From NCBI RefSeq assembly GCF_003966335.1, contig NZ_CP034549.1:390001-422000 (forward strand): 32,000 nucleotides of DNA. Direction: 5' to 3'. Both the position numbers and the translations under genes were made by a program. Source of the stretch: Nonlabens ponticola. Lineage in GTDB: Bacteria; Bacteroidota; Bacteroidia; Flavobacteriales; Flavobacteriaceae. Below, one piece after another: positions 1-31,053 of the stretch. Each line of letters starts with the position of its first letter. Within the stretch, counting starts at the first letter, position 1. The notes below the pieces were generated by a model. That model saw only the letters and a list, made by a program, of their open reading frames with translations. It made no database searches and was not told the origin of the DNA.

Positions 1-702
1 TCCTGCGTTGGGTATTGTTTTTAGTTCCGCTTTCGCGAAAGCGTGATCAATCAACATCTTATCGCTATCTAATATGTATCCCGATTCTCCACCGCGTATG
101 AACAAGGTAGGTATATCTATAGGCTCATCATGCTGCTCATGAGTTCCTACATCATGCTGGCTCGCAGCTAGTGTGGGTAAGTTAAAACGCCAGCCATAGG
201 TATTTTTATCGATACGGTGCAGGCTTTTCATCAAGAACATGCGGGTTCCTACATCATTGATACGCTGGGCAAGAATCTTATCTGCATCGCCACGTTTCTT
301 GAGTGTTGTAAAATCTACCGACTGCAACGCATTGATGATATCGCTGTGATGCGGTGCGTATTCTTTGGGAGCAATATCTGCAATGATCAATTTGTCGATA
401 AGTTCTGGATACATGGCGGCACACCGCATGGCGACCTTACCGCCCATGCTGTGTCCTAATAGTACGATGTTTTCCAAGTCATACTCCTTGCAATAATTTG
501 ACACATCTTGTGCCATATCATTATAATCAAAGGTATCGCTATGAAAACTGCGACCATGATTGCGTTGATCGAGCAGGTGCACTTGAAATCCATCCTGTGA
601 CCAGCGAGTTCCTAGCGTTTTCCAGTTGTCTGCCATGCCCAGGAATCCGTGTAATATAACGAAGGGCTTGCCTTCTCCCAATATGATGCTGTGCAGTTTC
701 AT
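1..702 (-). CDS. alpha/beta-fold hydrolase (esterase-like); its 3' end runs off the window
   Basis: It is absent from the ORF track because it has no in-window stop. Reverse translation from the ATG at 702..700 gives [31 protein letters not shown]... The nucleophile elbow GHSMGG lies at 439-456. Its ATG overlaps the pdxJ stop (ATGA at 702..699). Palindrome copy 1 is read here as AFAKA. Confidence 0.8.
28..43. repeat. palindrome copy 1, CGCTTTCGCGAAAGCG
   Basis: Exact 16-bp palindrome, inside the hydrolase CDS and read as AFAKA. Confidence 0.95.
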
Positions 703-1415
703 GAGCTCAATCGTGCCTTATACATATTAACGACGTTCTCCAGACCTAGATATAGACTCTCAGAAATCAATGCGTGCCCTATGCTTACCTCTAGCAAATC
801 CGGTAACTGCTGTGCAAAAAATTTAAGGTTCTCTAGTGAAAGATCGTGACCTGCATTGATGCCTATTCCTAATTCGGTAGCCTTTTTAGCTGCTTTTATA
901 TATGGTGCAATCGCGGCTTCTTTATCCTTATTATAGTGGCTCGCATAATCTTCTGTATATAACTCGATGCGGTCCACGCCTGTTTCTTTGGCGCCTTCAA
1001 CCATCTCTATGACTGAATCAACAAATATGCTGGTGCGTATCCCTTGATTTCTAAAATGAGATACTATCTCTGTCAAAAAATCACGGTGCTTGATCGTATC
1101 CCATCCTGCATTTGATGTGATGGCATCTGGCGCGTCTGGAACTAGGGTAACTTGTGCCGGCTTGACCTCATCGACTAGTTTGATAAAGCTATCAATTGGG
1201 TTTCCTTCAATATTCAGCTCCGTAGTTACAATTCTCTTGAGATCTCGTGCATCTTGATACTTGATGTGACGCTCATCAGGTCGTGGATGGATCGTGATTC
1301 CTTGTGCGCCAAATGATTCTAGATCTACCGCTACCTTGAGCAAATCTGGAACATTACCACCACGAGAGTTGCGCAGTGTTGCTATTTTATTGATGTTGAC
1401 ACTTAAAATGGCCAT
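699..1415 (-). CDS. pdxJ: pyridoxine 5'-phosphate synthase
   Basis: The 238-aa ORF begins [24 protein letters not shown] and contains ..[13 protein letters not shown].. and ..NAGHDL.., which are typical PdxJ TIM-barrel motifs. Confidence 0.95.
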
Positions 1416-1499
1416 AGTCCTGTTTTAGTCTCAAAAATACAAAGTATGTGCGCCGCAGGATACGCCTAGAAATGTTTAATTTGCAGTAAAACATGCTTC

Positions 1500-2156
1500 A
1501 TGGATTTACAAGAGTATATCATTAACGACGTGACACCGCTTTCTCTAGAAGATGACGTCAAGGTTTCTCAGCGCATTTTCCAGCAACAAACGATCTCTCA
1601 TTTACCTGTCCTCGATAAAGATCAATATGTGGGCTGCGTGTCTGAGACTGATGCGCACTGTTTTGAAGACAATCAAAAGCTGAACGATGTCAAATATGCT
1701 CTGGATCGTTTTTTTGTAAAAGAGGATACCCATTGGCTGGATGTGCTAGAAGCATTTGCCCAACATAATGCCAACTTAATGCCTGTTCTAGATACCAATA
1801 ATAAATATCTAGGCTACTATGAGTTGAAGGATATCATGCAGCATTTTAATGACTCGCCTTTCATGTACGAGAGCGGTGCCGTGATCGTGCTGGAAAAAGG
1901 GTCTACGGACTACAGCTTTAGTGAGATATCGCAGATTGTAGAGACTAATGACAGTAGGGTTTTTGGGATGTTTGTAAGCGGTTACCGCGATCATTTGTCT
2001 GAAATCACCATCAAAATAAGCCCAGCAAATCTCAACGCGGTGATTCAAACCTTCAGGAGATATAGCTATGAAGTGCTTACCGCTGCCGAGGATGACACCT
2101 ATCTAGATGCGCTGAAGAAAAGATCTGACTACCTGGATAAATACCTTAATATATAA
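1500..2156 (+). CDS. CBS domain-containing protein
   Basis: The 218-aa ORF has a CBS-pair-like N-terminal half (ISHLPVLDKDQYVGCVSETD, NLMPVLDTNNKYLGYYELKDI). Its stop overlaps the nadK start (TAATG). Confidence 0.75.
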   Translation: MDLQEYIINDVTPLSLEDDVKVSQRIFQQQTISHLPVLDKDQYVGCVSETDAHCFEDNQKLNDVKYALDRFFVKEDTHWLDVLEAFAQHNANLMPVLDTNNKYLGYYELKDIMQHFNDSPFMYESGAVIVLEKGSTDYSFSEISQIVETNDSRVFGMFVSGYRDHLSEITIKISPANLNAVIQTFRRYSYEVLTAAEDDTYLDALKKRSDYLDKYLNI

Positions 2157-3031: not shown

Positions 3032-3133
3032 GCAATAAAAGTCCCAACTACCTGTTTATGAATGTACACAATAGGGCATGAAACCTCATGCTGGCTAAAG
3101 AGAATTGTTATATTTGCACGTTTTAAAATTTCC

Positions 3134-3823
3134 ATGCGTTTATCGCTAGTTATCATCGTTTTTTTCGTTTCCGCTTTCGCGAAAGCGCAAACATTTGAGA
3201 TAGGAATATGGGCTGGTGGCTCTAACATCATAGGCGATGTGGGCAGCACTGCATATATCAATCCTACAGGAACTACGGTAGGTGGTATTTTTAAGTGGAA
3301 TCGCAGTAGCCGCCACAGTTTTAGAGGCACATTGCTCTACTCAAAAATTACCGCAGACGATGCTGATAGTGACGATCGCTCCAGAGAATTGCGTGGGCTT
3401 GAGTTTGACTACAACATGCTCGAGGCATCCATAGGTATAGAATATACCTTCTGGGAATGGAATTTATACAACTATAAAAGACAGTTTGTGCCTTATATGT
3501 ACTCAGGAATAAGCGCTTATCGATATGACCAGCAGCGCCTCAATAATAATGCTGAACTTGAGATCTATTCCAATAGTATAGACGTGGCTCTGCCATTTAT
3601 TTTGGGAGTCAAAGGAACATTAAGCGACCATCTAATTATAGGTGCTGAGATAGGCGCACGATATACCATTACTGATAATCTAGACGGGAGCAATCCAGAA
3701 GGTCGATTTGGAAGCAATCAACCTCAACGATTTGGTAATCTTAATAATAATGACTGGTACGTCTTTAGTGGTGTGACGCTTACCTACACTTTTGGACGTA
3801 AACCTTGCTACTGCAATTTCTAA
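3134..3823 (+). CDS. outer-membrane beta-barrel protein (porin-fold, DUF6089-like)
   Basis: I moved the start to the ATG at 3134, which gives the signal peptide MRLSLVIIVFFVSAFAKAQ. The rest shows alternating aromatic/Gly beta-strand patterns and ends in an aromatic C-terminus (..CYCNF). The position upstream of uppS/bamA is typical for Flavobacteriia. The family name is from memory only. Confidence 0.6.
   Translation: MRLSLVIIVFFVSAFAKAQTFEIGIWAGGSNIIGDVGSTAYINPTGTTVGGIFKWNRSSRHSFRGTLLYSKITADDADSDDRSRELRGLEFDYNMLEASIGIEYTFWEWNLYNYKRQFVPYMYSGISAYRYDQQRLNNNAELEIYSNSIDVALPFILGVKGTLSDHLIIGAEIGARYTITDNLDGSNPEGRFGSNQPQRFGNLNNNDWYVFSGVTLTYTFGRKPCYCNF
3172..3187. repeat. palindrome copy 2, CGCTTTCGCGAAAGCG
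   Basis: Exact 16-mer. It extends to a 26-bp palindrome at 3167-3192 with one mismatched pair. It encodes the signal-peptide end SAFAKAQ. Confidence 0.95.
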
Positions 3824-3827
3824 TTTT

Positions 3828-4562: not shown

Positions 4563-4565
4563 CCG

Positions 4566-7176: not shown

Positions 7177-8352
7177 ATGAAATGCAACATCATTGTCTTA
7201 TTGATAGTAGTTCTGGTTGGTTCCGCTTTCGCGAAAGCGCAACGAGGCATACGCGTGGGTTACGTTGATATGGAGTACATCCTAGAGAACGTACCCGAGT
7301 ACCAGAAGGCATCCACTCAATTAGAGAACAAGATGCAGGTCTGGAAACAGGAAATCGAGAAGATGGAGGCAGAGATCGACCAGATGGAAACCTCTCTCAA
7401 GAACGAGCGAGTACTTCTTACCAAGGAACTGATAGAAGAACGCGAGGAAGAAATCGAGATCAAGCGTCAGGACATGAGAGATTATCAGGTCAAGCGTTTT
7501 GGGACAGATGGTGATTTCATCAAGCAAAAACAACAGCTTATACAGCCCGTACAAGATCAGGTATTCAATGAGATGCAAAAAATAGGTCAAGGCAAGAAGT
7601 ATGACATGATTGTTGACAGATCAGAAACAACATTGCTTTACAGTGCAGACCGTCACGATTTAAGTGACGATGTACTTAAAGCCATAGGTCGCACTACAAA
7701 ACTTGAAGTCAACGCTGCAAAGCGCAAGAGCCGCAACCGCGGCAATGATGAGGACTCAGATCTAGTCTCAGAGCAACCGTACAAGAGCGTACAAGAAGCC
7801 GCAGATGATGCCGCAATTGAGCAGGAAAAGCAAGAAATAAGAGACGAGCGACAAGCCACTCGCGAGGAAAAAACAAGAAAGCGTGACAGCATCAAAGCCG
7901 CTAGGAAAAGAGAGTATCAAGAACGCAGACAGCGCCTACTTGATGCCCGACAGAGAAAAAAAGATAGTATCAAGGCAGTAAGAGCAGGCAAAGTGTTTGT
8001 TCCTAAAGTTGAAGAAAATGTAGAAAACACCGCTGCAGAAGAAAAGAAACCGTCTACAGAATCTGGTGTGAAGCCTAAAGTAACAAACCCTACCGTAACC
8101 ACTCCAGCTGCTGCACTGCCGCCAACACCAGAAACAAAAAAACCTGCGGCTGCTAATAAACCGACTAGAGAAGAACTTATCAAGAAACGTGACAGCATTA
8201 AAGCTGCTAAGATTAAGGAGGTAAAAGAAAGACGTGAACGTATTCTAGAGGAACGTAAACGTAAAAGAGACAGCATTCTTAATGCCAGAAAAAAAGCAAA
8301 AGAAAACAAAGAATCTGAAAGTAAAAAAGGAACGCCACCAGGCGGCAATTAA
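7177..8352 (+). CDS. OmpH/Skp-family periplasmic chaperone with a long charged, repeat-containing C-terminal tail
   Basis: It has a signal peptide (MKCNIIVLLIVVLVGSAFAKAQ) and an OmpH-like coiled-coil core (YVDMEYILENVPEYQKA...). These are followed by a ~190-aa K/R/E/P-rich tail carrying RKRDSIKAA-type repeats. Confidence 0.75.
   Translation: MKCNIIVLLIVVLVGSAFAKAQRGIRVGYVDMEYILENVPEYQKASTQLENKMQVWKQEIEKMEAEIDQMETSLKNERVLLTKELIEEREEEIEIKRQDMRDYQVKRFGTDGDFIKQKQQLIQPVQDQVFNEMQKIGQGKKYDMIVDRSETTLLYSADRHDLSDDVLKAIGRTTKLEVNAAKRKSRNRGNDEDSDLVSEQPYKSVQEAADDAAIEQEKQEIRDERQATREEKTRKRDSIKAARKREYQERRQRLLDARQRKKDSIKAVRAGKVFVPKVEENVENTAAEEKKPSTESGVKPKVTNPTVTTPAAALPPTPETKKPAAANKPTREELIKKRDSIKAAKIKEVKERRERILEERKRKRDSILNARKKAKENKESESKKGTPPGGN
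7224..7239. repeat. palindrome copy 3, CGCTTTCGCGAAAGCG
   Basis: Exact 16-mer. It encodes the signal-peptide end SAFAKAQ of the long OmpH paralogue. Confidence 0.95.
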
Positions 8353-9887: not shown

Positions 9888-12506
9888 TTGGCAGCCAAAA
9901 GCAAGAAAGTCACGCCCTTAATGCAGCAGTACAACAAGATCAAGGTCAAGTACCCTGATGCTTTGTTGCTGTTCCGTGTAGGTGATTTTTACGAGACCTT
10001 TGGAGAGGACGCAGTTAAGACCGCTCGCATTCTCAACATTGTTTTGACTAATAGGAACAACGGCGGCGAGCGCACAGAGCTTGCAGGTTTCCCACACCAT
10101 TCCTTGAATACTTACTTGCCCAAACTTGTCCGTGCAGGTGAACGAGTGGCAATTTGTGATCAATTAGAAGATCCTAAACAAACTAAAAAGATTGTAAAAC
10201 GCGGCGTGACCGAGTTGATCACGCCAGGTGTATCGCTCAATGATGAGGTACTACAATCGCGTTCAAATAATTTTTTGGCGGCTGTTACGCTTTCGCGAAA
10301 GCAATATGGCATCGCATTTCTTGACATATCAACAGGTGAGTTTCTAGTGTCACAGGGCACAAGAGAAGAGGTGGACAAACTGCTTCAAAACTTCCAGCCC
10401 AGTGAGGTGCTGGTATCTCGCAGCGATAAAAAGAATCTAGCGCAGGATTTCCCGTATGATTTACCATTCTTCTATCTGGAAGACTGGATTTTTCAAATAG
10501 ACTACACGCGTGAATCTTTGTTGAAGCAGTTTAAAGTGAACAGCCTTAAAGGGTTTGGGATTGAGAAACTGGATGAAGGTATCGTGGCTGCTGGTTCGAT
10601 ACTGCACTACCTAGCGGAAACGCAACATGATAAACTGGATCATATCGTCAACATATCGCGTATTGAGGACGACAGCTATGTGTGGATGGATCGTTTTACC
10701 GTGCGCAATCTAGAGTTATATCAATCACTTAATACCGGCGCTGTCACCTTGCTTGATGTAATTGATAAAACTACTACACCTATGGGTGGTCGTTTATTAA
10801 AGAGATGGCTGGCTTTTCCATTAAAAGACAAGAAAGAGATAGAGAAACGTCACGAGATTGTGCAATTCTTTCATGACCATACAGAGCAGAAGGAAAGCAT
10901 AAAGACAGCACTCAAGCGCATGAATGATCTAGAACGTCTCATTTCAAAGGTCGCGGTAGGTAAAATTTGTCCTCGTGAAGTAGTACAACTTAAAAACAGT
11001 CTTGAATCCATCGTTCCCGTTAAGGAAGCTGCACAGGCTGCAAGTAACAAGTCTTTACAATTTTTAGGTGAACGATTGCATCCTTGTCAGCATCTGGTAA
11101 GTCATATCAAGCAATCACTTGATGAGCAGGCACCTGTCAACATTTTAAAGGGAAAAACTATTGCCAGCGGCTATAATCCAGAATTAGATGAATTGCGAGG
11201 TCTAGCCACTTCAGGTAAAGATTACCTAGATAAAATGCTGGAAAGACACTGTGAGGAAACGGGCATTAGCAGTTTGAAGATAAGTAGCAACAACGTCTTT
11301 GGCTATTACATTGAAGTGCGCAATTCACATAAGGATAAGGTACCTGAATCCTGGACACGCAAACAAACGCTGGTAAATGCTGAGCGCTACATCACTGACG
11401 AACTCAAAGAATACGAGGCTAAAATCTTAGGTGCCGAAGAACGCATTCACGCACTACAACAAGAATTATTTGAAGGCGTCGTCAAGAAAATTATGCCTTT
11501 TATTAAAGCTATTCAAGAAAATGCGCACCTGATAGGTCAATTAGATTGTCTGATCTCATTTGCAGATCTTGCCGTGCTTTCAAAATATACACGACCAGAA
11601 ATATTAGATTCCGCTGGATTAGTGATCTCAAACGGTCGTCATCCAGTTATAGAAAAAATGCTGCCTGCTGATAAGCCTTACATCCCTAACGATGTATCCT
11701 TAGATCAAGACTCTCAACAAATAATCATGATCACTGGTCCTAACATGAGTGGTAAAAGTGCCATCTTGAGACAGACAGCATTGATCGTCCTACTGGCACA
11801 AATAGGCAGCTTTGTCCCTGCAGATGAGGTTCAAATGGGCATCGTGGATAAAATTTTCACACGAGTTGGCGCTAGTGATAATATCTCGCAAGGAGAATCC
11901 ACCTTCATGACAGAGATGAATGAGAGCGCGAGCATTCTCAACAACATTAGCGAGCGCAGTCTGGTGCTGCTGGATGAAATAGGTAGAGGAACCAGTACAT
12001 ACGACGGTATATCAATTGCATGGGCCATCACCGAGTATTTGCATGAGCATCCTTACAAACCTAAAACCCTGTTTGCCACTCATTACCATGAGCTCAACGA
12101 GATGACAGATCAATTTGAGAGGATAAAAAATTTCAACGTGCAGGTAAAAGAGCTCAAGGACAAAGTGTTGTTTATGCGCAAGCTGGTTGCTGGTGGTAGC
12201 CATCATAGCTTTGGTATCCATGTAGCTAAAATGGCTGGTATGCCACAGCAAGTAATTGCTAAAGCAAATAAATTGCTCAAGCGATTAGAAAAGTCTAACA
12301 AACAAGAGGAAAATACAAGTGGTTTGAAGGCAATTCAAGAAGAAGAAATGCAGTTGAGCTTCTTTAATCTTGACGATCCATTGCTAGAAAATATCAAAAA
12401 TGAGATCCTACAAACCGATATAAATACCCTTACTCCAGTAGAAGCGTTGATGAAACTTAACGAGATCAAACGCATGCTCACAGGAAAGGATCAAGCAACA
12501 GGATAA
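9888..12506 (+). CDS. mutS: DNA mismatch repair protein MutS
   Basis: A TTG start at 9888 gives [19 protein letters not shown], which keeps the conserved TPLMxQY N-terminus; the first ATG is at 9921. Walker [16 protein letters not shown] and [12 protein letters not shown] are present. Palindrome copy 4 is read here as TLSRKQ. Confidence 0.97.
10289..10302. repeat. palindrome copy 4, GCTTTCGCGAAAGC
   Basis: Exact 14-mer inside mutS, read as LSRK. Its flanks (GTTACGC...GCAA) are identical to copy 9 and to the reverse complement of copy 11. Confidence 0.95.
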
Positions 12507-12600: not shown

Positions 12601-12672
12601 GCGAAAGTAGCTCAGGGGTAGAGCATCACCTTGCCAAGGTGAGGGTCGCGGGTTCAAATCCCGTCTTTCGCT
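12601..12672 (+). tRNA. tRNA-Gly (anticodon GCC)
   Basis: It folds by hand into a cloverleaf. The acceptor stem is GCGAAAG/CTTTCGC, the D stem GCTC/GAGC, the anticodon stem TCACC/GGTGA with loop TTGCCAA, and the T arm GCGGG-TTCAAAT-CCCGT. CCA is not encoded. Confidence 0.93.
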
Positions 12673-12680
12673 CAAGAGAA

Positions 12681-12706
12681 AAAGCCGATTCAACATCGGC
12701 TTTTTT
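12681..12706 (+). terminator. intrinsic terminator after tRNA-Gly
   Basis: The stem AAAGCCGAT pairs with ATCGGCTTT and is followed by TTTTTT. Confidence 0.7.
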
Positions 12707-12738
12707 GATCGCACCAATGATGTGTCGCTGACACAATC

Positions 12739-12824
12739 GCTCGAGTGGTGGAATTGGTAGACACGTTGGACTTAAAATCCAATGGGTAGTAATGCCCGTA
12801 CGGGTTCAAGTCCCGTCTCGAGTA
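12739..12824 (+). tRNA. tRNA-Leu (anticodon UAA), long variable arm
   Basis: The sequence reads GCTCGAG-TG-GTGGAATTGGTAGACAC. The anticodon stem is TTGGA/TCCAA with loop CTTAAAA. There is a long variable arm and a T arm GGGTTCAAGTCCCGT. The acceptor 3' strand is CTCGAGT, giving a G1-U72 wobble pair. Confidence 0.9.
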
Positions 12825-12828
12825 CTTT

Positions 12829-13168: not shown

Positions 13169-13325
13169 TTAAGCCGACTTCTCACTCAAATAATACCAGT
13201 AACGTTTCGGCACCTATTGTAGGTGCGGTTTCACTGTCTAGCTTTAGGCTATGTTGGTTCTCTGAAATTTTATTGACTCCTATGATCTTAATGGATGTTC
13301 TCGCTTTCGCGAAAGCGGAATTCCA
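13169..13325 (-). pseudogene. decayed duplicate of the 3'-terminal ~52 codons of the TIGR03915-family gene (compare 15869-16023)
   Basis: The segment 13181-13210 matches 15881-15910 at 28/30 positions. The TAA position is conserved (13169-13171 vs 15869-15871), both copies carry the palindrome (13302 vs 16000), and the offset is 2700 then 2698 bp. The copy at 13169-13325 has in-frame stops (e.g. ..ENIH* and ..HLQ*V..). Confidence 0.7.
13302..13317. repeat. palindrome copy 5, CGCTTTCGCGAAAGCG
   Basis: Exact 16-mer in the decayed gene-end duplicate; it is the paralogue of copy 6. Confidence 0.95.
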
Positions 13326-15868: not shown

Positions 15869-16657
15869 TTAGGCCACTTTCTCACTCAAATACTTCCAGT
15901 AACGTTTCGGTACATGTTGCAGGTGCAGTTTCATGTTTTTGCGCGATTCTATGTTAGTACTTTTAAAATACTGGTTCCAGAGATCGCGGTAATTGTTCTC
16001 GCTTTCGCGAAAGCGTGATTCCTCAACAACACCAGTATTCATAATACCTCGTTGCGCCCTAGGGTCATTAAATTGGATGGTGACCTCATCTACCTTTTCA
16101 AGATCATAGGAAATACCATAATCGCGATTCAAATCATAGATGATCCATTTCTGGTCTGCATAACGGTTTTTAAAGTGCTTTGAGATCAACGGCAGGACAT
16201 TGAAATCTGGCTCGCAGTTAGCATAATACACATCTTCCTCAATGAGATGAAATCGTATAAACGCTTCCATACGGTGCTTTTCCCGACCTACCATTTTGGC
16301 CGCTTGAGACATTTTCAATACGGTGATATTTCCATAATCGCCTGATGGTGAAGTTCCATTTTTAAAAGTGATGCGGCAGTAGTCCAATAACGTATTCTCG
16401 ATACCAGAAATCTCACTTAAAAATGCCCTGTAAAACTGGTTAAAATCATTGCTGCCGCACAATTTTTTCAGCTTTTTGAAAACACGATCTGCCTTATCTT
16501 GATCGGTGATGATAGTTTGCATTTCACCAAATAGCTGGTCCTGCGCCAGCGAGGTTTTTTGAATAATGGGATTTTTGAGTTTATGGGCATAAACATCAAA
16601 GACTGCCGTCAAGAACCCATTAAAGGAACCATCGTATTGTAATAATTCATTCATCAA
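15869..16657 (-). CDS. TIGR03915-family (DUF4130) putative DNA repair protein, without a fused uracil-DNA glycosylase domain
   Basis: The N-terminus ..YDGSFNGFLTAVFDVY.. is characteristic of the family. Its start overlaps the stop of the radical-SAM partner (ATGA at 16657..16654). Palindrome copy 6 is read here as RFRESE. Confidence 0.85.
   Translation of the reverse strand: MMNELLQYDGSFNGFLTAVFDVYAHKLKNPIIQKTSLAQDQLFGEMQTIITDQDKADRVFKKLKKLCGSNDFNQFYRAFLSEISGIENTLLDYCRITFKNGTSPSGDYGNITVLKMSQAAKMVGREKHRMEAFIRFHLIEEDVYYANCEPDFNVLPLISKHFKNRYADQKWIIYDLNRDYGISYDLEKVDEVTIQFNDPRAQRGIMNTGVVEESRFRESENNYRDLWNQYFKSTNIESRKNMKLHLQHVPKRYWKYLSEKVA
16000..16015. repeat. palindrome copy 6, CGCTTTCGCGAAAGCG
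   Basis: Exact 16-mer in the TIGR03915-family CDS, read as RFRES. Confidence 0.95.
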
Positions 16658-17919: not shown

Positions 17920-18067
17920 GCCCGCGCAGGCGGGAATCTTTTTATTACTATTCCGCACTTGATGCGGAATCTCATTTTAATTTGTCATGCCGTCGCAGGA
18001 CGGCATCTCTGAGTCACTCGTTAAGGTATCAGTCGGCTTCACTCGCCATACCGTCGCAGGACGGCAT
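17917..18067 (-). repeat. cluster of four short hairpin repeats in the dnaE2 / radical-SAM spacer
   Basis: On the minus strand these read AGAT-CCCGC-CTGC-GCGGG-CATG (17917-17939), ATTCCGCA/TGCGGAAT (17950-17970), ATGCCGTC-CTGC-GACGGCAT (17987-18006) and a near-identical copy (18048-18067). The 17987 copy with its flanks resembles 26286-26313. Confidence 0.6.
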
Positions 18068-18076
18068 CAGTCAACA

Positions 18077-21000
18077 CTATTTCCTAACCTTACCAGGTTT
18101 TCTACCAGCACCGCGCTGGTACACATCTACTTTTTCATGCGGCAGTTCTTGTCTTCTATAACCGTTGCCATTGCCCATGCGCCTATCCTTTAAACTAGCT
18201 TGTTTATCCAGTCGATGGATGGTTTGCGGATTATCCTCTGCATATCGTGGATCCTCGATATAGTCTGCTTTTTTCATGTCTTGCACCTCGATGGAACAAA
18301 AATCAAACTCTTCTACCACCTTGCCATAAACTGCATAGATACCGCTGCCGCGAAAGGTAATCCTAGCAGCCACAGGTGGAAACATCACGGTGTCAAAAAA
18401 GTGACCATCACGGTCTAGAAAAGTGCCAAATTGCATGCGCTTTCCCTTACCCGTATGAGTCGTTTTTATATTGACTACATAACCATAAATCAGGATATTT
18501 CTATTGAGATGATCCTTGAGATCCTTGCACGTATTGTTGTTTACCGGTGGCTTTACCAGTAGGTCAAAATGTGAGCACAATGGGAAACCCAATAGCTCAA
18601 TCTGTTCAAAGGCTAGTTCTTGCAACGTTGTAGTTAATTTGGGAATGCTCGCTTGTCTAAACTTGGGTACAAACAGCTGTTTTTGCAAGGCTTTTTTAGG
18701 TGTTTTATCCATTTTAAAATGTGCTTGCCACAACAATTCATACCGGTCAATACCTGTGAACCTAAATGCGTTGATACGTATCAACAAACTCATTTGATCA
18801 ATGCTAATACCTACTCTATTAATAAAATCTTCCAGCGATTTGAAATCACCATCATACCATCGTGCTTCTGTGATGAGTCTCATGGTGGTTTTTTCTAGCT
18901 CATTGATATAGCTGTAGCCCAGGTAGATGGTCTTGCCTTTAATGACATTGGCAATATCACTATTATTGACGCACGGCGCCTCGATGATCGCGCCGCACAT
19001 TCTAGCCTCATGCACATATAGTTCTGGCCTGTAAAAACCACCACCATTATTGAGTGTTGCAGTCATATATTCTAGCGGGAAATATCGTTTCAAGTACAGA
19101 CTCTGGTAACTTTCCACGGCGTAAGATGCACTGTGACCTTTCGCGAAAGCGTAACCCGCAAAACTCTTGATCTGATCCCATATTTCTTGAGCTTCTTCTT
19201 TTTTATAGCCCAGCTTGATGCAGTTTTGAAAATACTTCTGTTCCACGCGCTTGAACTCATCGCGCGAACGGTACTTACCGCTCATACCGCGACGCAGGAT
19301 GTCGGCCTCGGCAAGGTCTAGTTTTGCATAGTGGTGCGCCACCTTGATCACGTCTTCCTGATAGACCATGATGCCATAGGTCTCTGGCATGATCTCGTTG
19401 AGGATAGGATGCGCCTCGGCACGTTTTTCTGGGAATCGGGTGCGCAGGATAAACTCGCGCATCATACCACTTTGCGCCACACCAGGCCTGATCACGCTAC
19501 TCGCTGCGACCAGTCCTATATAATCGTTTGTAGCGAGCTTGCTCAACAGCATGCGCATGGCAGGCGACTCAATGTAAAAACAACCTATACAACCAGCGCG
19601 TGACAGCATGCGGTTGATGTTCTCATCTTTCATAAAAGACTTGACATCGCGGCGCACATCTGCCACCTGTGCGTTGGGCTGGTTTTCTTTGATCAGTTGT
19701 ATGGCATCGCGTATTTTTCCCAGACCGCGCTGTGCGAGTATATCAAACTTGTGGATTCCAGCATCCTCGGCAATGTGCATGTCAAACTGTACGGTCGCAT
19801 AACCTTTGGGCGGCAAGCTGGTAGCGCTGTAATAATGAATGGGACGCTCTGTAATGAGGATACCACCTGCGTGGATGCTGGTATAATTGGGCTTGTCTTT
19901 AATATGATGTGCATACTTGAGCACCAGTTGATGCATCTGGTCCAGTTGCTTGCCGTTCCAGTTTCCCGTTGAGAGCATGTCGATATCTGCTCGCGGTAAA
20001 CCGAATACCTTACCCAATTCCCTAATCACCGCGCGATATTGAAAGGTGACATAAGTGCCTTGCAAAGCAACGTTGTCAAATCTCTTGAAAATAAAGTCTG
20101 TCATGTCCTCGCGATCGTCCCATGAGAAGTCAAGGTCAAAATCTGGTGGGCTGGTACGGTAATCATTGATGAATCGCTCAAAATACAGATCGAGTTCTAT
20201 GGGATCGACCTCGGTTATTTGTAGCAGGTAAGCCAGGATACTATTAGCACCACTACCGCGGCCTACATAGAAATAGCCTTGGCTGCGAGCGTATTCACAT
20301 ATCTTCCAGTTGATTAGGAAATAGGCGACAAAGTTTTTGCGGGCAACCGTAGAAATTTCTTTCTCAATACGTTCTTTGATGTCTTTGTTAGAGGCTCCAT
20401 ACCGCACGGCAATACCTTGTTGCGCGAGCTCTTTAAGTAATTTGAAGTCGGCTTTTTGGTTTTCTTCTAGCGTGCCATCGCGATGGTAGGTTTTCTGGTT
20501 GGCATTGAGCTGTGACTTGTCATAATCAAAACTGATGCTGCATTGATCCAACAGCTTTTTTGTGTTTTCCAGAATAAAGGGATAATCCGCAAAAGCTTTT
20601 TCAAGATCATCTACTGGAATCATGGTGTCCTCAAGGCTGCCTTGCTGATTATCTGGTAATTGACTAAGCAAGATATTGAGATCGATGCATCGCAACAATC
20701 TGTGAGCATTGTAGTCTCGCTTGTTTCTAAAACTCGTGGTTTGCATCACGACGAGCTTGTCCTTGTAATTAATGTAGTCGGTAAACGGTAATTTACGTAG
20801 CGCTGCAATGGAGATTCCTATGTATTCGCTTTCGCGAAAGCGGTCTACCACACTACAACCAGTAGAACTTTTTTTATCCAATGCCATCACCGTGTTGAGC
20901 GGATAGATAACAAATGCATTGTCAAACGCTGGCGCCTCATCTGGTAATGGCGTCTTGTTATGCAAATGCCCTGATAAAAAGGCGTTGAGCTCCTGAAAAC

Positions 21001-21241: not shown

Positions 21242-21322
21242 GAGCCTCTTTTTCCTCTGGACATTTCCCCAAAGGGAAAATTCATTTAAATTATTTTTTC
21301 TTTCTAATACTAGACCATCATT

Positions 21323-21346
21323 GTCACTTCGACTACGCTCAGTGAC
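21323..21346 (-). repeat. hairpin carrying the GAGCGTAGTCGA motif (shared with 26214-26233)
   Basis: The minus strand reads GTCACT-GAGCGTAGTCGA-AGTGAC. The identical 12-mer occurs at 26218-26229 on the plus strand. In both places the motif has the same orientation relative to local transcription. Confidence 0.55.
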
Positions 21347-21361
21347 CTCAAGAGAAAATTT

Positions 21362-21421
21362 CAAATCCCAAGTTCCAAGTTCCAAATCCCAAATCCCAAA
21401 TCTCAAATCCCAAACCTCAAC
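21362..21421 (-). repeat. heptamer tandem array, (GGATTTG)n-like, ~8.5 units
   Basis: The plus strand reads CAAATCC CAAGTTC CAAGTTC CAAATCC CAAATCC CAAATCT CAAATCC CAAACCT CAAC. Confidence 0.85.
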
Positions 21422-21472
21422 TAAACCTGAGGACTGAGGCACTCGAAGTCCGACTTTATAAAATCCCAAACC

Positions 21473-21541
21473 GTCAACTATTAACTATTAACTGATGCCA
21501 TCAACTGTCAACTGACAACTATTAACTGTTAACTAATAACT
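21473..21541 (-). repeat. heptamer tandem array, (AGTTNNN)n, ~10 units, starting 3 nt after the Y-family polymerase stop
   Basis: The plus strand reads GTCAACT ATTAACT ATTAACT GATGCCATCAACT GTCAACT GACAACT ATTAACT GTTAACT AATAACT. Confidence 0.85.
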
Positions 21542-21544
21542 GTA

Positions 21545-22762
21545 TCACTGCTTCCTATGTGCCAGCACTACTGGCGGTAAACCGTTAAACGGATTAATCA
21601 TTCTTCCTATAGTTCTCGCACCTAATCCTGATGCGCGTACTACCGCTCGATCGCCGTATTTCTCACGTACGTTGTCAAGTGCGTTATATAAATTAAGTGC
21701 CGTTTCTGTATCGTCAAACAGGTTGATTTGATAATTACCCGTTACCAGATGCGAGAAACGTATGCCTATCAATCGCACCAGCAGCCTGCGGTTATAAAGT
21801 CGCTCAAAAATCTCTAATATTTTGGGGATCAAGATGTGATCTGCGCTGCAATACGGTATCCGCATTTGTTTTGAATACGTATTAAAGTCAGAATACTTGA
21901 TCTTGACATTGATACAAGCCGTGAGTTTATCACCACGTCGCAACTGATAGGCAAGATTCTCTGTCATGGCGATGAGTATGGATTTGAGTTTCTTGACATC
22001 AATGGTGTCCTTGTCAAAGGTGCGCTCTGTACTTATGGACTTGCGCTCGTTGAAGGCAATCACTGGTCTGTTGTCCACGCCTTGCGCGCGACGCCATATC
22101 AAACTACCGTTCTTACCTAATACTTTGATAAGCATTTCTTCCTGCATTTCCTGCAACGTCTTTATACGCTTGACGCCCAAGTGCCGCAAGGTCTGATAGG
22201 TCTTATCGCCTACTTGTGGTATTTTTTTGATCGACAACGGTGCCATGAATTGTTTCTCAAAGCCATTGTCGATCATAAGCTGATTGTTAGGCTTTGCCTC
22301 ACCCGTGGCAATTTTTGAAACCACCTTATTGACTGACAAGCCAAAGGAAATAGGTAAACCAGTTTCCTTAATGATCTTGCGACGTATTTCTGTAGCGATC
22401 TTATAGCAATCATAAAACCGATCCATGCCTGTCATGTCTGCATAGAACTCATCGATACTAGACTTTTCAAACAACGGTGTTTCTTGTTTGATGATTTCAG
22501 TCACTTCATCAGAATGTTTTGAGTACGTGCCCGCATTGCCTCTTATGACGATGGCCTCTGGACACAGCTGGCGTGCAAGTTTCATGGACATACCACTATG
22601 CACACCATAACCACGCGTCTCATAACTACACGCCGCTACGACACCACGATCACTGGTACCGCCTACCAGTAGTGGCTTGTACTGTAGTCTAGAGTCGATC
22701 TTGCGCTCTACAGACACATAAAATGTATCCAGATCCATGTGCATGATATGCCTGTCGTTCAT
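21545..22762 (-). CDS. dinB: Y-family DNA polymerase (DinB / Pol IV-like), catalytic residues present
   Basis: Motifs MHMDLDTFYVSVE (catalytic Asp motif), SIDEFYADMT (D-E motif) and the little-finger region are present. The ORF is 405 aa. Confidence 0.9.
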   Translation of the reverse strand: MNDRHIMHMDLDTFYVSVERKIDSRLQYKPLLVGGTSDRGVVAACSYETRGYGVHSGMSMKLARQLCPEAIVIRGNAGTYSKHSDEVTEIIKQETPLFEKSSIDEFYADMTGMDRFYDCYKIATEIRRKIIKETGLPISFGLSVNKVVSKIATGEAKPNNQLMIDNGFEKQFMAPLSIKKIPQVGDKTYQTLRHLGVKRIKTLQEMQEEMLIKVLGKNGSLIWRRAQGVDNRPVIAFNERKSISTERTFDKDTIDVKKLKSILIAMTENLAYQLRRGDKLTACINVKIKYSDFNTYSKQMRIPYCSADHILIPKILEIFERLYNRRLLVRLIGIRFSHLVTGNYQINLFDDTETALNLYNALDNVREKYGDRAVVRASGLGARTIGRMINPFNGLPPVVLAHRKQ

Positions 22763-24482: not shown

Positions 24483-24498
24483 AGATGATACTGGTTAC

Positions 24499-24512
24499 GC
24501 TTTCGCGAAAGC
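24499..24512. repeat. palindrome copy 9, GCTTTCGCGAAAGC
   Basis: Exact 14-mer in the 53-bp spacer between the OM-barrel gene and the substrate-binding protein gene. Confidence 0.95.
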
Positions 24513-24535
24513 AAAAAACACAACAACACCTCAAC

Positions 24536-25444
24536 ATGAAAAAACTATCCTATTTATTATGTGCCTTACTGCTAGTGGGCTGCAAGGATGCCAGCCAAGA
24601 TAACGGCAAACTCAACGTCGTCACCACTACCACCATGATTACAGACATGGTGGGCGCAATAGGTGGCGATGCGATCAACCTACAAGGCCTTATGGGTAGT
24701 GGCGTGGATCCGCATTTGTACAAGCCTAGTGAAGGTGACGTGTCAAAACTGCAAGATGCAGACGTGATTTTTTACAACGGCTTGCATCTAGAAGGTAAGC
24801 TAGTAGATATTTTTGAAAAGATGGAAGCGCGCGATAAAAACGCCATTGCGGTGAGCGATGCCATTGATAAAAGCACGCTTATAGGCAGTGAGTATTTTGC
24901 GAGTAATTATGATCCACACGTTTGGTTTGATACCGATTACTGGATTTCTATGTCCCGACTAGTTGCTCAAGAACTCACCGCTGCAGATCCTGAGAACAAG
25001 GAAACCTATGAGCAGAATCTCGCTAATTACATATCGTCCATTGAAGAACTAGCAGTAGAATTGAAACAAATCATTGACGATTTACCTGCCGAAAAACGCA
25101 TCCTGGTAACCGCACATGATGCCTTTAATTACTACGGGCGCAAATTTGGTTTTGAGGTAGTAGGATTGCAAGGATTATCTACCGCGACGGAGGCTGGCGT
25201 GCAAGATGTTCAAAACATCACACAATTTATTATCGAGAATGATATCAAGGCCGTTTTTGTAGAAAGCAGCGTGCCTAGAAGAACAGTAGAAGCATTGCAA
25301 GCAGCGGTACGAGCACAAGATCGCGAAGTAGAAATAGGTGGCGAACTGTATAGTGATGCTTTAGGCAGCGCTGGCACAGCAGAAGGTACTTATGTAGGTA
25401 TGTACAAGCATAATGTCAACACTATCGTCAACGCACTCAAATAA
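24536..25444 (+). CDS. metal (Mn/Zn) ABC transporter substrate-binding lipoprotein, TroA/ZnuA/PsaA cluster
   Basis: The ATG at 24536 gives [16 protein letters not shown], which contains a lipobox. Metal-ligand contexts [15 protein letters not shown] and AHDAFNYY are present. Confidence 0.9.
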
Positions 25445-26207: not shown

Positions 26208-26213
26208 ATGCTT

Positions 26214-26313: not shown

Positions 26314-26427
26314 TATAAAACTTTGGCGTCTGCCTGCTAGACAAATGACAAACAGGAAAGCGTTTTGAATACATTATTACGGGAATCAAAAGTTGATTTT
26401 GATTTTATTTTTGAATTTAATTTTTAA

Positions 26428-28694: not shown

Positions 28695-28704
28695 TGTTTA
28701 TCAC

Positions 28705-28718
28705 GCTTTCGCGAAAGC
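28705..28718. repeat. palindrome copy 10, GCTTTCGCGAAAGC
   Basis: Exact 14-mer in the 33-bp gap between the convergent permease and crotonase genes. Confidence 0.95.
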
Positions 28719-28727
28719 AAAACTATT

Positions 28728-29495: not shown

Positions 29496-29506
29496 TGGTT
29501 TGGTAT

Positions 29507-30964
29507 TTATTTAATTCTAGGTAACGTTACTGTAAAAGTAGTGCCGCTACCGTAAAGCGTTTCCATAGTGATGGTTCCATTAAAACTTTCCACGATTTGT
29601 TTTACCATGGCGAGTCCTAGGCCCATACCACTATTCTTGGTAGTAAATTTAGGTTCAAAAATCTTGCTTTCATTCTCTGGAGCGACGCCAGTACCATTGT
29701 CGGATACCTTAAGGTAGATATTATTTTCATCATGAGTGACACTCACCTTAATATCCATGTGACGTTGTTCATGTTGGGCTTGCAAGGCATTTTTGACCAG
29801 ATTTGTCACAACACGTATCAATTGCGTACGGTCAAAAATGGCGCACAATTCGCTCGCATCTTCTTCATAGTGAATGTGCGAGTCATTGAAAATATCCAAG
29901 GCTAGTTGCGTGATTTTGGGCACGTTGGTCTGCTCGTTTTTCTGCGCTGGCATGGTTGCATAGGTCGAGAAAGCACCTGCAATGTTGCTCATCACATCAA
30001 TTTGTTCAATCAATGAATTAGAATATTCCTTGATTTTGTCACGCGCATCAGGATCCTCGGGATCAAAGCGTCGTTCAAAACTTTGCACCGTCAACCTCAT
30101 GGGCGTCAAAGGATTCTTGATCTCGTGGGCAACCTGTTTTGCCATCTCACGCCATGCCTGCTCACGCTCGCTAGTCGCTAGTTTTACAGCGCTTTCCTCG
30201 AGCTCATCCACCATCGCATTGTAGGATATCACAAGCGTGTTTATTTCCTCAGTTCCTGCGACGTCCACACTTATTTTTTGATTGCGTTTGGCAATGTTGA
30301 GTTCCTTAATCTTGTCGCTGATATATCGTATGGATCTAGTCACATATCTGGACAAAATAAAGGCAATGAGTATGGTAAAAAACAGCATCACCGCGTACAC
30401 CATACCTATGCGATATAGAAACTCACGCAACTCATAGTTTATAAAATCATCGTTCTCTAGATACGGCAAATTGATGATCGCTATATTCTTGAATTGATCA
30501 TCCTTGAGATAGGTGTAACTAGACCTATAACTCTCGCCGTTTTCCTGAAATTCTACCACGTATCGACCGCTATCTGCATCACGCAAACGCGTCAAGGTTT
30601 CTTGACTCAGCTGCTTTTCTAGATCGTCCTTGACCAGTTTTTTACTAGATGTCTTGAGCAACCTGCCTTTCAAATCATACATGTTTACCGGCAAGCCGTG
30701 GATGTCACTTATGTCATCAATCTCTGTCTTAAAAATGAGTGGCAGCTTCTCTGTAGTAACCTCAAAGTCGGTTTTTTTGAGTTCATAATTAAAACTCTCA
30801 AGAATCGCTTCTTCCTTGCGTTCCAGGCGCTTGTTATGGTAGTCCTTGCCTTGCTCGCTATACTGATAAATGGACACGCCTGCAATCAAGATACTCGAGA
30901 TAAGAGTAAGCAAGATCATCGAGAAAAAGATCCTGTTGCGCAGGCTGTTCTTGTATAATTTCAT
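29507..30964 (-). CDS. sensor histidine kinase (two TM segments, HAMP-like linker, HisKA + HATPase_c)
   Basis: The H-box HEIKNPLTP, N-box LVKNALQA, G1 DNGTGV and G2 GMGLGLA are present. I preferred the ATG at 30964 (MKLYKNSL..) over the GTG at 31000. No response regulator is adjacent. Confidence 0.88.
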   Translation of the reverse strand: MKLYKNSLRNRIFFSMILLTLISSILIAGVSIYQYSEQGKDYHNKRLERKEEAILESFNYELKKTDFEVTTEKLPLIFKTEIDDISDIHGLPVNMYDLKGRLLKTSSKKLVKDDLEKQLSQETLTRLRDADSGRYVVEFQENGESYRSSYTYLKDDQFKNIAIINLPYLENDDFINYELREFLYRIGMVYAVMLFFTILIAFILSRYVTRSIRYISDKIKELNIAKRNQKISVDVAGTEEINTLVISYNAMVDELEESAVKLATSEREQAWREMAKQVAHEIKNPLTPMRLTVQSFERRFDPEDPDARDKIKEYSNSLIEQIDVMSNIAGAFSTYATMPAQKNEQTNVPKITQLALDIFNDSHIHYEEDASELCAIFDRTQLIRVVTNLVKNALQAQHEQRHMDIKVSVTHDENNIYLKVSDNGTGVAPENESKIFEPKFTTKNSGMGLGLAMVKQIVESFNGTITMETLYGSGTTFTVTLPRIK

Positions 30965-31039
30965 CTGGATAAAAGTAGCAATTATTGCGCCAGTACTCAC
31001 GCGATGATGGATATGAAAATTTAAGATGGGTTTAATTTT

Positions 31040-31053
31040 GCTTTCGCGAAAGC
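31040..31053. repeat. palindrome copy 11, GCTTTCGCGAAAGC
   Basis: Exact 14-mer in the divergent spacer between the histidine kinase and the aldo/keto reductase. Confidence 0.95.

Follow-up and report, generated by a model that had tools for sequence, protein, structure and literature searches.

The palindrome GCTTTCGCGAAAGC is almost certainly a real and selected DNA signal that extends through the whole of Nonlabens, a marine genus of the Flavobacteriaceae. The 32-kb stretch of DNA analysed here (the window) contains ten exact copies and one copy with a single mismatch, against ~7e-5 exact copies expected per 32 kb (our own arithmetic from base composition, 42% GC), and 100 dinucleotide-preserving shuffles of the window yielded 0 copies. 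The motif is common to every sampled Nonlabens and present in no sampled outgroup, and both its exact sequence and its positions are preserved much more strongly than neutrality would predict. In the literature that was searched, no mention of it was found.

Occurrence and Spacing of the Motif

An earlier note on this DNA had drawn attention to the motif, and its counts were largely borne out. The ten exact sites were found again, as were six copies of the 16-mer form CGCTTTCGCGAAAGCG (29, 3173, 7225, 13303, 16001, and 20828), the 26-bp palindrome with a single mismatched pair at 3167-3192, and four non-coding copies (13303, 24499, 28705, and 31040), of which 24499 is counted via a probable downstream start. 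The peptide readings AFAKA, AFAKG, RFRES, and LSRK hold on a frame check. The one-mismatch copy, CCTTTCGCGAAAGC, exists too, but lies at 19137-19150 rather than at 19138-19149.

Outside the window, 26 of the 28 MutS loci of the Nonlabens clade carry one to six copies each, the two motif-less loci being fragments of 2.2-2.4 kb. None of the 52 outgroup MutS loci (including Salinimicrobium, Aureivirga, and Namhaeicola) has the motif, even at one mismatch, and a comparable hyper-abundant word was sought in these 52 loci and not found. A metagenome scan added at least 120 stretches in which the 22-bp extended form occurs, large contigs having it at many places, and 73 extra copies in 591 kb; genome and metagenome loci together represent ~229 distinct genomic positions. 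Nonlabens-type DNA totalling 1.45 Mb holds 335 exact, 44 one-mismatch, and 22 two-mismatch copies, where 0.002, 0.1, and 2.3 are expected. This corresponds to 7.6 exact copies per one-mismatch copy, and 88% of the copies within one mismatch are exact. The density is similar across 26 Nonlabens-clade genomes, all estimates coming from individual loci that are orthologous to the window or motif-seeded. An enrichment confined to this window and a local duplication artefact, both considered in the earlier note and both tested through relatives, are at odds with that similarity, with the presence of the motif in loci not syntenic with the window, and with the ~229 distinct positions.

Even spacing is a feature absent from the earlier note. 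Gaps between copies in the window measure 1.7-4.2 kb, with a coefficient of variation of 0.22-0.23 compared to 0.87-0.88 for random placement, and 0 of 20,000 simulations were as even. For the metagenome loci the coefficient is 0.57 against 0.86 at random, and gaps below 1 kb number 9 where 20.6 are expected. One-mismatch copies sit in large gaps and avoid exact copies. The rule is one site per neighbourhood of 3-5 kb.

Placement favours intergenic DNA or tolerant protein segments. Just over half of the copies (51%) lie within the ~15% of the DNA that is intergenic, a roughly sixfold per-base enrichment between genes. Convergent gene ends are not favoured, accounting for only 13 of 83 classifiable intergenic copies, and distances to gene starts and stops are broad. 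About half of the copies are in open reading frames, in all three frames, and these concentrate in the first 20% of the frame, where the window examples are signal peptides. In Nonlabens-type open frames the exact motif encodes 130 of 137 AFAKA and 53 of 54 RFRES peptides, and AFAK is ~20 times commoner there than in other Bacteroidota. This coding pattern, together with unenriched half-sites and intergenic islands of identity, supports the earlier contention that protein-level selection cannot account for the motif and that something acts on the DNA itself.

Origin and Conservation of the Copies

AFAKA is read in the window from three carriers. The copy at 29..42 (16-mer 28-43) lies near the C-terminus of an alpha/beta-hydrolase encoded on the minus strand, whose gene extends past the left edge of the window; the exact motif is present in both long (~69% identity) alignments, to the syntenic Nonlabens loci L127 and L128, the remaining alignment rows being short motif-seeded matches. 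At 3173..3186 the 16-mer falls in the signal-peptide region of a DUF6089 protein (VSAFAKA/Q), at the centre of the 3167-3192 near-palindrome, and at the orthologous position L127 has GCTTTTGCAAAAGC and L128 has GCTTTCGCGGAAGC, in alignments free of indels. The signal peptide of an OmpH/Skp-like protein (GSAFAKA/Q) contains the 16-mer at 7225..7238, where 10 of 11 syntenic loci have the exact motif at the same position in flanking DNA that is only ~70% identical. The mutS gene has its copy at 10289..10302, where codons ~134-138 (TLSRK) belong to a variable linker. In most Nonlabens the gap-free alignment pairs this copy with non-motif sequence; L127 and L128 carry near-motifs, and L160 has an exact copy displaced by 6 nt.

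RFRES is read on the minus strand from the 16-mers at 16001..16014, in a DUF4130 gene, and at 20828..20841, in a DnaE2-like polymerase III alpha gene. The former has the motif in L127, L128, and L130 and lacks it at this place in L131, L132, L134, and L166, while the latter is exact in four of six syntenic species and has one mismatch in the other two, with flanks that are 66-71% identical. The same DnaE2-like gene carries the one-mismatch copy (19137..19150), which encodes AFAKG within the conserved peptide YAFAKGH. Here the window and L128 have TTC GCG AAA and other species TTT GCA AAA, a synonymous shift towards the motif.

Among the non-coding copies, the intergenic 16-mer at 13303..13316 has tRNA-Gly and tRNA-Leu upstream of it and, ~165 bp downstream, a gene whose product contains a CHU_C type IX secretion signal domain. 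The copy at 24499..24512 probably belongs to the 5' leader of a ZnuA-like lipoprotein gene; it is inside the annotated frame (start 24485), and the lipoprotein signal peptide begins 17 codons later, which is probably the true start. At 28705..28718 the motif stands between two convergent genes, of which the one for an ABC-3 permease ends at 28694 and the one for an enoyl-CoA hydratase at 28728, with orthologous sites in two metagenome loci (L211 and L260). The last copy, 31040..31053, is also intergenic and precedes by 40 bp the start (31000) of a histidine-kinase gene on the minus strand.

Copies thus arise in place by point substitution and not by insertion, because the mutS alignment is gap-free, L127 and L128 hold near-motifs, and the L160 copy is shifted by 6 nt; the shift in DnaE2 points the same way. 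The alignment of orthologues that had been proposed for separating point conversion from insertion accordingly shows coding copies gap-free against motif-less orthologues. At 70-75% DNA identity, 58% of motif positions are conserved compared to 2.6% of control 14-mers, and at 65-70% identity 28% compared to 1.0%. Intergenic copies form islands of identity in otherwise unalignable spacers such as that between murI and mutS. Decay from CpG to TpG is not dominant among the one-mismatch copies.

The Recognised Unit

The core is the perfect palindrome (C)GCTTTCGCGAAAGC(G), with T at -3 and -4 and A at +3 and +4, and half-sites alone are not enriched. It is flanked by dyad-symmetric arms of ~19 bp per side, GT-rich and C-depleted in the 5' arm of each strand and mirrored (AC-rich) in the 3' arm, which are alike in deep-coding and intergenic copies. 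The arms are compositional and not complementary, their complementarity being that expected from composition. The recognised unit is thus the whole dyad-symmetric element of ~50 bp, palindrome and arms together. Since the palindrome forms only a weak hairpin (5-6 bp, -3 to -6 kcal/mol, z-score ~-1), we infer that a symmetric (dimeric), sequence-specific protein recognises the motif as duplex DNA; a role as RNA or hairpin is unlikely.

Possible Functions of the Motif

Our best guess, tentative and made by analogy, is that the motif labels DNA as self for uptake or recombination, in the manner of USS, DUS, or HIP1. A symmetric dimeric protein would read the palindrome as duplex DNA, and the motif would mark self DNA for uptake and/or homologous recombination in natural transformation. 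These systems had already been named as the nearest analogues, and they are the right comparison. USS and DUS are evenly spaced, in excess between genes, and avoid constrained coding sequence, which has been attributed to uptake-biased drive (PMC7811141, PMC2817400, PMC1939737), and the spacing and turnover of the Nonlabens motif match the descriptions of uptake sequences. Shared traits are those of a hyper-abundant, taxon-restricted word in coding and non-coding DNA, with enrichment between genes and in protein segments under weak constraint, an origin by point substitution, a proteome imprint (AFAKA and RFRES in Nonlabens), relatively even spacing, and flanking AT-rich or bendable tracts. 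Another likeness is the absence of the motif, at up to two mismatches, from two cultured Nonlabens phages, P12024S and P12024L. In IMG/VR, some bona fide phage structural modules contain two to three copies at host-like spacing, which uptake-driven accumulation does not simply predict unless they are long-resident prophages.

In contrast, the known USS and DUS words lack symmetry, are 9-12-mers, and recur at ~1 per kb with numerous one-mismatch variants, whereas the Nonlabens motif is perfectly palindromic over 14-16 bp, occurs at a three- to fivefold lower density (1 per 3-5 kb), is much sharper, and has no detected dialects within the genus. Its palindromic form, density, and sharpness speak against an uptake role, and the perfect dyad and ~50-bp footprint suit an intracellular dimeric DNA-binding protein equally well. 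We know of no uptake sequence in the Bacteroidota. Natural competence with a preference for own DNA is known from two Riemerella species (Flavobacteriales), in which no uptake sequence of up to 10 bp was identified; Flavobacterium johnsoniae was not transformable, which counts against uptake (PMC7965970).

With HIP1 (GCGATCGC) the motif shares perfect symmetry, overwhelmingly exact copies in and between genes, positional conservation between genomes, and non-random (quasi-periodic) spacing. The function of HIP1, long unknown, is now linked to transformation, which HIP1 raises, and it has been proposed as an uptake signal (10.1101/2024.09.10.611283; 10.64898/2026.06.24.733823). The two words are unrelated in sequence, and the Nonlabens motif is nearly twice as long, has a symmetric footprint of ~19 bp per side, and is without a known cognate methyltransferase. 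HIP1 is spread through its phylum with a periodicity reported at 10-90 kb, whereas the Nonlabens motif is genus-restricted, of lower density, and regular at the kb scale.

The main rival to the self-DNA tag is a nucleoid-anchoring site. It is possible, if doubtful, that a genus-specific dimeric protein (nucleoid-associated, ParB/Noc-like, or SMC-associated) organises or anchors the chromosome in units of ~3-5 kb, with sites held by ordinary purifying selection. The perfect palindrome with unenriched half-sites, the footprint that is identical in coding and intergenic copies, the very regular spacing with mutual exclusion even of one-mismatch copies, and the strong positional conservation would all fit, and parS, NBS, matS, and SBS are likewise palindromes of 13-16 bp read by a dimer (ParB, Noc, MatP, and SlmA), as we infer for the Nonlabens motif. 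The likeness to parS (GTTTCAC/GTGAAAC) and NBS (ATTTCCC/GGGAAAT), with TTTC...GAAA arms around a GC-rich centre, is superficial; the half-site register differs, TTTC and GAAA being 4 bp apart there and 2 bp apart in the Nonlabens motif. Known organisers have few to ~100 degenerate sites, often regionally confined, against hundreds to roughly a thousand near-exact ones here, at every sampled locus; sites of nucleoid-associated proteins are normally degenerate, unlike the predominantly exact copies here, and no candidate protein was found. HIP1 was earlier argued on similar grounds to act in nucleoid structure (PMC5861425).

Chi-like or defence-related self-marking is unlikely. Here a translocating nuclease or helicase would be switched off or redirected at the bound or recognised palindrome, and DNA without a site every few kb would be degraded. 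One site per neighbourhood with few long gaps and the presence on some phage-like contigs are compatible with this, and the arms, GT-rich on the strand that runs 5' to 3' towards the core, recall Chi and RecA-preferred sequences, which are GT-rich. The density of 1 per 3-5 kb also resembles that of Chi (1008 copies in the 4.64-Mb E. coli genome; PMC1939737), and HIP1 is reported to resemble a Chi site in part of its action (10.1101/2024.09.10.611283). However, known Chi sites are 5-8 nt long, asymmetric, strand-oriented, and read as single strands, whereas in Nonlabens only the full duplex palindrome is enriched and the isolated 7-mer half-site is not, and the cultured phages lack even a single copy.

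Quite improbable is a functionless by-product of modification or biased repair, in which an orphan methyltransferase or very-short-patch-type repair at TCGCGA/CGCG converts near-matches. The core does contain both palindromes, of a kind that type II methyltransferases typically recognise, two orphan methylases have their sites within HIP1 (PMC4390886), and the synonymous DnaE2 change would fit. However, a specificity of 16 bp plus 19-bp arms goes far past any methyltransferase or Vsr site, TCGCGA outside the motif occurs 87 times where roughly 76 are expected (our own estimate from base composition), one-mismatch copies are not mainly decayed CpG, and pure mutational drive predicts neither site exclusion nor even spacing.

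An RNA-level or structural element, either a transcribed hairpin (terminator, mRNA stabiliser, or processing site) or a DNA cruciform, has very little to commend it: a palindrome is transcribed identically in either orientation and half of the copies are intergenic, but against this stand the weak hairpin, the merely compositional complementarity of the arms, the absence of compensatory variation (sequence is conserved, not pairing), a downstream flank that is A-rich and not T-rich and so offers no terminator U-tract, the placement relative to gene ends given above, and the lack of an Rfam family match at motif sites. A REP/MITE/RAYT-type miniature element spreading by insertion is hardly credible, since REP/BIME, MITEs, and other extragenic palindromic repeats, although equally high-copy and palindromic, are imperfect, extragenic, and spread by insertion, whereas the motif is exact, frequent in open reading frames in three frames, and substitution-born, with neither a target-site duplication nor any sequence conservation outside the compositional arms; REP had rightly been set aside, and for coding copies insertion is contradicted by the gap-free alignments.

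A self-DNA tag remains the preferred reading. The motif would accumulate and persist in Nonlabens by drive or selection, as for USS in Pasteurellaceae and DUS in Neisseriaceae and as proposed for HIP1 in cyanobacteria, and it would seem to be a so far undescribed equivalent of DNA-uptake sequences or of cyanobacterial HIP1.

The palindrome in the window and its genes

All 10 exact copies of the perfect palindromic 14-mer GCTTTCGCGAAAGC that an earlier note had reported from the window were recovered at the same coordinates, against about 7e-5 expected (our own arithmetic from base composition) and none in 100 dinucleotide-preserving shuffles. The rest of that description also holds: there is a one-mismatch copy, at 19137-19150, six copies extend to the 16-mer CGCTTTCGCGAAAGCG, the stretch 3167-3192 forms a 26-bp palindrome apart from one mismatched pair, four copies are non-coding, and translation gives the peptides AFAKA, AFAKG, RFRES and LSRK in the frames claimed for the coding copies. 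The note did not mention that the 11 copies are evenly spaced. The gaps between them are 1.7-4.2 kb, with a CV of 0.22-0.23 compared to 0.87-0.88 for random placement; no simulation out of 20,000 reached this evenness.

Annotation by Pfam indicates that the window contains ordinary housekeeping genes. These include pdxJ, NAD kinase, a DUF6089 protein, uppS, bamA, two OmpH-like genes, murI and mutS, as well as genes for a protein with PKD and CHU_C (type IX secretion signal) domains, a DtxR-type repressor with a ZnuABC-like transporter, an enoyl-CoA hydratase, a histidine kinase and a partial alpha/beta-hydrolase. The long spacer downstream of mutS holds tRNA-Gly(GCC) and tRNA-Leu(TAA) (12601-12825), upstream of the motif copy at 13303. 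The listed ORF start of the ZnuA-like gene (24485-24540) is probably spurious; a lipoprotein signal peptide starts 17 codons downstream, which probably places the motif copy at 24499 in the 5' leader of this gene. On the minus strand, a cluster at 15869-22762 encodes a Y-family polymerase (IMS family), a DnaE2-like Pol III alpha, a radical-SAM/HHH protein and a DUF4130 protein. This conserved cluster, which keeps its synteny in several Nonlabens loci, resembles a damage-inducible cassette for mutagenesis or repair. Together with mutS it contains four of the seven coding copies, an anecdotal count from one window. DUS, the uptake sequences of Neisseriaceae, are reportedly biased towards genome-maintenance genes, and the copies in the cluster and mutS recall that bias.

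Distribution in the Nonlabens clade and in metagenomes

The nearest relatives of the MutS encoded in the window (79-82% identity) belong to Nonlabens species and Flavobacteriaceae MAGs. The motif was counted in 80 retrieved MutS loci, 28 from the Nonlabens clade and 52 others. One to six exact copies are present in 26 of the 28 Nonlabens-clade loci, the other two being fragments of 2.2-2.4 kb, and the 52 remaining loci (Salinimicrobium, Aureivirga, Namhaeicola, other Flavobacteriales, Bacteroidales and beyond) contain none, even when one mismatch is allowed. Nor did the outgroup MutS loci yield any comparably repeated or over-represented 11-mer that would point to a dialect in sister lineages. 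The MutS locus of Bacteroidetes bacterium UBA2322 (L161) has unrelated 11-mers, among them TAAGCCGGCAA, GGCAGATTTTA and CGCCAAAACCG, that occur four times each in 22 kb, which suggests some other dispersed repeat of that genome. GC-richer loci of the Nonlabens clade (L119-L176) seem to carry the motif more densely: per 22 kb there are 3-6 copies, in most cases 4-6, at 40-44% GC, a group that the window joins at 42%, and mostly 3-5 at 34-37% GC.

In many Nonlabens loci, synteny with the window is limited to murI-mutS, so that their flanking copies represent different genomic neighbourhoods. Metagenomes were scanned with the 22-bp extended form TTNCGCTTTCGCGAAAGCGNAA, for which less than one chance match is expected from a rough estimate of collection size. 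The scan matched at least 120 stretches of marine or saline-lake origin, spread over many positions of contigs that reach 980 kb; the first 80 of these (591 kb) contain 73 further exact 14-mers. Altogether, 1.45 Mb of Nonlabens-type DNA holds 335 exact copies (0.002 expected), 44 one-mismatch copies and 22 two-mismatch copies. When clustered by their masked flanks, the 335 copies resolve into about 229 distinct genomic sites, which together with the many neighbourhoods shows that the enrichment is genome-wide within the clade, and not the local duplication artefact confined to the window that the earlier note had considered. Density is about 1 per 3-5 kb at every sampled locus, an estimate that rests on loci orthologous to the window or seeded by the motif rather than on complete genomes. 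The main conclusions hold despite this sampling, the non-independence of species pairs and the crude gene calls used below, because the effects span orders of magnitude.

Placement, spacing and imprint on the proteome

Crude ORF calls over 796 kb, in which about 85% of bases are coding, place 93 copies between genes and 88 inside them (181 in total). The AFAKA frame accounts for 51 of the coding copies and the other two frames for 18 and 19. Nearly half of the coding copies (41/88) lie in the first fifth of the ORF; in the window such early copies lie in signal peptides, reading AFAKA followed by Q. The intergenic copies show no bias to convergent gene ends, and their distances to starts and stops vary. 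In Nonlabens-type open frames, the motif encodes 130 of 137 AFAKA and 53 of 54 RFRES peptides, and AFAK is about 20-fold commoner than in other Bacteroidota. The motif thus shapes the proteome of Nonlabens.

Spacing in the metagenome loci is likewise more even than random (CV 0.57 vs 0.86), with 9 gaps shorter than 1 kb where 20.6 are expected. Large gaps between exact copies usually have a one-mismatch copy in the middle, and one-mismatch copies avoid exact ones (median distance 2.6 kb vs 1.6 kb; 10% vs 34% within 1 kb). As a rule, a neighbourhood has a single site. One of the shortest spacings, about 620 bp, separates two copies that flank the small gene of a 120-aa membrane protein (3757-4389 in L278 and 726-1359 in L244, both metagenome contigs). 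This is the sole double-flanked gene in the site clustering and is uninformative; a gene for an autoregulated binder beside recurrent sites was not found among the 335 clustered copies, whose sites are mostly singletons.

Origin, exactness and conservation

The earlier note had proposed alignment of orthologues as a means to separate point change from insertion, and the outcome is substitution. The mutS copy aligns gap-free to unrelated sequence in most orthologues, two species have near-motifs there, and one has an exact copy shifted by 6 nt, which together indicate that copies are made in place by substitution. In DnaE2, the one-mismatch copy encodes the conserved YAFAKGH; its codons are TTC GCG AAA in the window and N. 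antarcticus and TTT GCA AAA elsewhere, a synonymous move towards the motif. Sites also turn over: most species have a copy just upstream of mutS, and in the window and one other Nonlabens MutS locus (L160) the upstream copy is absent and a copy lies about 400 bp inside the gene.

Once present, copies are strongly retained. In 21 Nonlabens-clade loci and the window, whose species pairs are phylogenetically non-independent, the exact motif is kept at orthologous positions in 58% of cases at 70-75% DNA identity and in 28% at 65-70% identity, compared to 2.6% and 1.0% for control 14-mers. Within the murI-mutS spacer, whose DNA is otherwise unalignable, the motif stands out as an island of identity. 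Copies are also mostly exact (88% of those within one mismatch), and the one-mismatch copies bear no CpG-decay signature that would hint at m5C methylation. The commonest two-mismatch variant (5/22) is the symmetric GCTTTTGCAAAAGC, which is likewise palindromic and AFAKA-encoding; rather than a second dialect, it may represent a site in formation or in decay.

Anatomy of the element

Outside the palindrome, the half-site GCTTTCG was counted 57 times, and 7-mers of equal composition have a median of 43; the half-site is therefore not enriched alone, which makes the whole palindrome the unit. The core includes TCGCGA and CGCG. At 227 non-orthologous sites, position -1 is C in 89% and positions -3 and -4 are T in 81% each. 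The 5' arm of each strand, whose 3' end faces the core, has little C (2-9% vs 18%) and more T and G between -3 and about -19, with T peaks at -4, -7, -10 and -13; the 3' arm is its mirror image. Deep-coding sites (68) and the other sites (141) share this signature. Arm-to-arm complementarity within single copies equals the compositional expectation, and the hairpin is weak (-3 to -6 kcal/mol, z about -1). From this anatomy we infer a symmetric protein that reads duplex DNA over about 50 bp; alternatively, some process starts at the core and proceeds symmetrically to both sides. Possible readings of the GT-rich, C-poor arms are a footprint of a protein or of bending, one of deamination on 3'-ended strands, or RecA-friendly tails.

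Motif copies and TCGCGA sites in phages

The cultured Nonlabens phages P12024S and P12024L (L199 and L200, 35.7 kb each) have no copies within two mismatches. Both also lack TCGCGA (NruI-type) sites, of which base composition predicts about 4 per genome, an absence of low statistical weight in two related genomes; host DNA outside the motif, estimated likewise, does not avoid TCGCGA. DNA methyltransferases are encoded by both. Some IMG/VR contigs with genes for portal, protease, major head, adaptor and HNH proteins (L089, L114 and L117; also L053) carry two to three copies at 3-6 kb spacing, and one pair 4480 bp apart is conserved in three related contigs. These are probably temperate phages of Nonlabens-type hosts that acquired the host word. 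Only multi-copy contigs are informative, as most single IMG/VR matches to the bare 14-mer lack the extended consensus and look like chance.

Comparison with known systems and candidate functions

To our knowledge, hyper-abundant exact words inside genes are rare, the described cases being essentially USS (the uptake sequences of Pasteurellaceae), DUS and the cyanobacterial iterated palindrome HIP1. The motif resembles USS and DUS as a taxon-specific oligomer over-represented by orders of magnitude, here in the Nonlabens clade only, in its genic and intergenic occurrence with an excess in intergenic or weakly constrained DNA, in its substitutional origin and in its fairly even genomic spacing. 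Features of this kind are on record for uptake sequences, where they are ascribed to uptake-biased drive (PMC7811141; PMC2817400; PMC1939737). USS and DUS are further defined by a preference of competent cells for DNA that bears them, and by a cognate receptor and competence machinery. With HIP1 the motif shares perfect palindromy, hyper-abundance, mostly exact copies in coding and non-coding DNA, and conservation of orthologous sites beyond neutral expectation (PMC5861425). HIP1 itself is GCGATCGC and cyanobacterial; sequence and host (Flavobacteriaceae) both differ, so the motif is an analogue and distinct from HIP1, as the earlier note had stated. HIP1-type palindromes also include methylated targets of conserved orphan methyltransferases, a point on which the motif offers the TCGCGA and CGCG of its core. 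Recent work shows that HIP1 enhances transformation and proposes it as an uptake signal (10.1101/2024.09.10.611283; 10.64898/2026.06.24.733823). Riemerella, of the same order as Nonlabens, has natural competence with a preference for DNA of its own, and an uptake sequence of up to 10 bp was not found in it (PMC7965970). In the literature searched, the motif (as 14-, 12- or 10-mer) is undescribed, no iterated palindrome or uptake sequence is reported for Nonlabens or other flavobacteria, and the competence status of Nonlabens was not found.

Tentatively, we regard a tag of self-DNA for uptake or recombination as the likeliest function, one that would be read by a dimeric receptor. It is favoured by the taxon restriction, the substitutional origin, the tolerance in weakly constrained coding sequence, the intergenic excess, the imprint on the proteome, the even and non-redundant spacing and the retention of sites, together with the parallels to HIP1 and Riemerella. 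The main rival, which we consider rather unlikely, is an intracellular organiser site, and the symmetry and footprint of the element fit it as well as they fit an uptake tag. The sites of ParB, Noc and MatP (parS, NBS and matS) are, like the motif, palindromes bound by a dimer, of 13-16 bp; however, they number from a few to about 100 per genome and are degenerate and often regional, whereas the motif recurs throughout and is mostly exact. The spacer between TTTC and GAAA is ACGT in parS and CCGG in NBS. In the motif it is GC by inspection, and neither consensus is matched.

The remaining readings are progressively less likely. A Chi-like or defence-related self marker comes next; Chi is a short asymmetric oligomer enriched alone, unlike GCTTTCG, so a Chi-like 7-mer half-site is rejected as the unit. 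It is followed by a by-product of methylation or repair, and then by an RNA hairpin. Against any hairpin or RNA role stand the weak folding, the lack of extra arm complementarity, the lack of a U-tract and the lack of an Rfam match at the sites; intrinsic terminators are stable GC-rich hairpins with a T-tract downstream of genes, whereas the motif has an A-rich 3' flank. A terminator or operator role is also rejected on the broad distances to starts and stops and the lack of a favoured intergenic context. Least likely is a mobile element: REP, BIME and MITE elements are extragenic and spread by unit insertion, whereas the motif aligns gap-free with motif-free orthologues and, as the earlier note had argued for REP, differs in being tolerated inside ORFs (88/181 copies, in all three frames).

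A further reading, possible but somewhat doubtful, is that a genus-specific protein system docks on the palindrome with its symmetric arms, each about 19 bp long, and marks the whole chromosome every 3-5 kb or so. This would be either the first DNA-uptake or self-recognition specificity system to be described in Bacteroidota, with a dimeric receptor for a 16-bp palindrome, or an unprecedented chromosome marking, such as an exact-site loop anchor or a nuclease self tag.

Significance

The motif is best filed as a new variant of the USS/DUS/HIP1 type of element. It differs from these in phylum and sequence, is longer and sharper, is dyad-symmetric with a footprint of about 50 bp and is unusually regular in its spacing; no such signal has been described for Bacteroidota in the literature searched. 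USS, DUS and HIP1 each opened a view on DNA uptake, recombination or chromosome biology. The motif raises testable questions of the same kind: whether marine flavobacteria discriminate self-DNA during transformation, which protein recognises a 16-bp palindrome at about a thousand sites per genome, and how a genus gains such a word and then imposes it on its proteome. It is also a clean taxonomic marker of Nonlabens-type metagenome contigs and, if it is truly an uptake signal, its inclusion in constructs could make Nonlabens-type bacteria genetically tractable.
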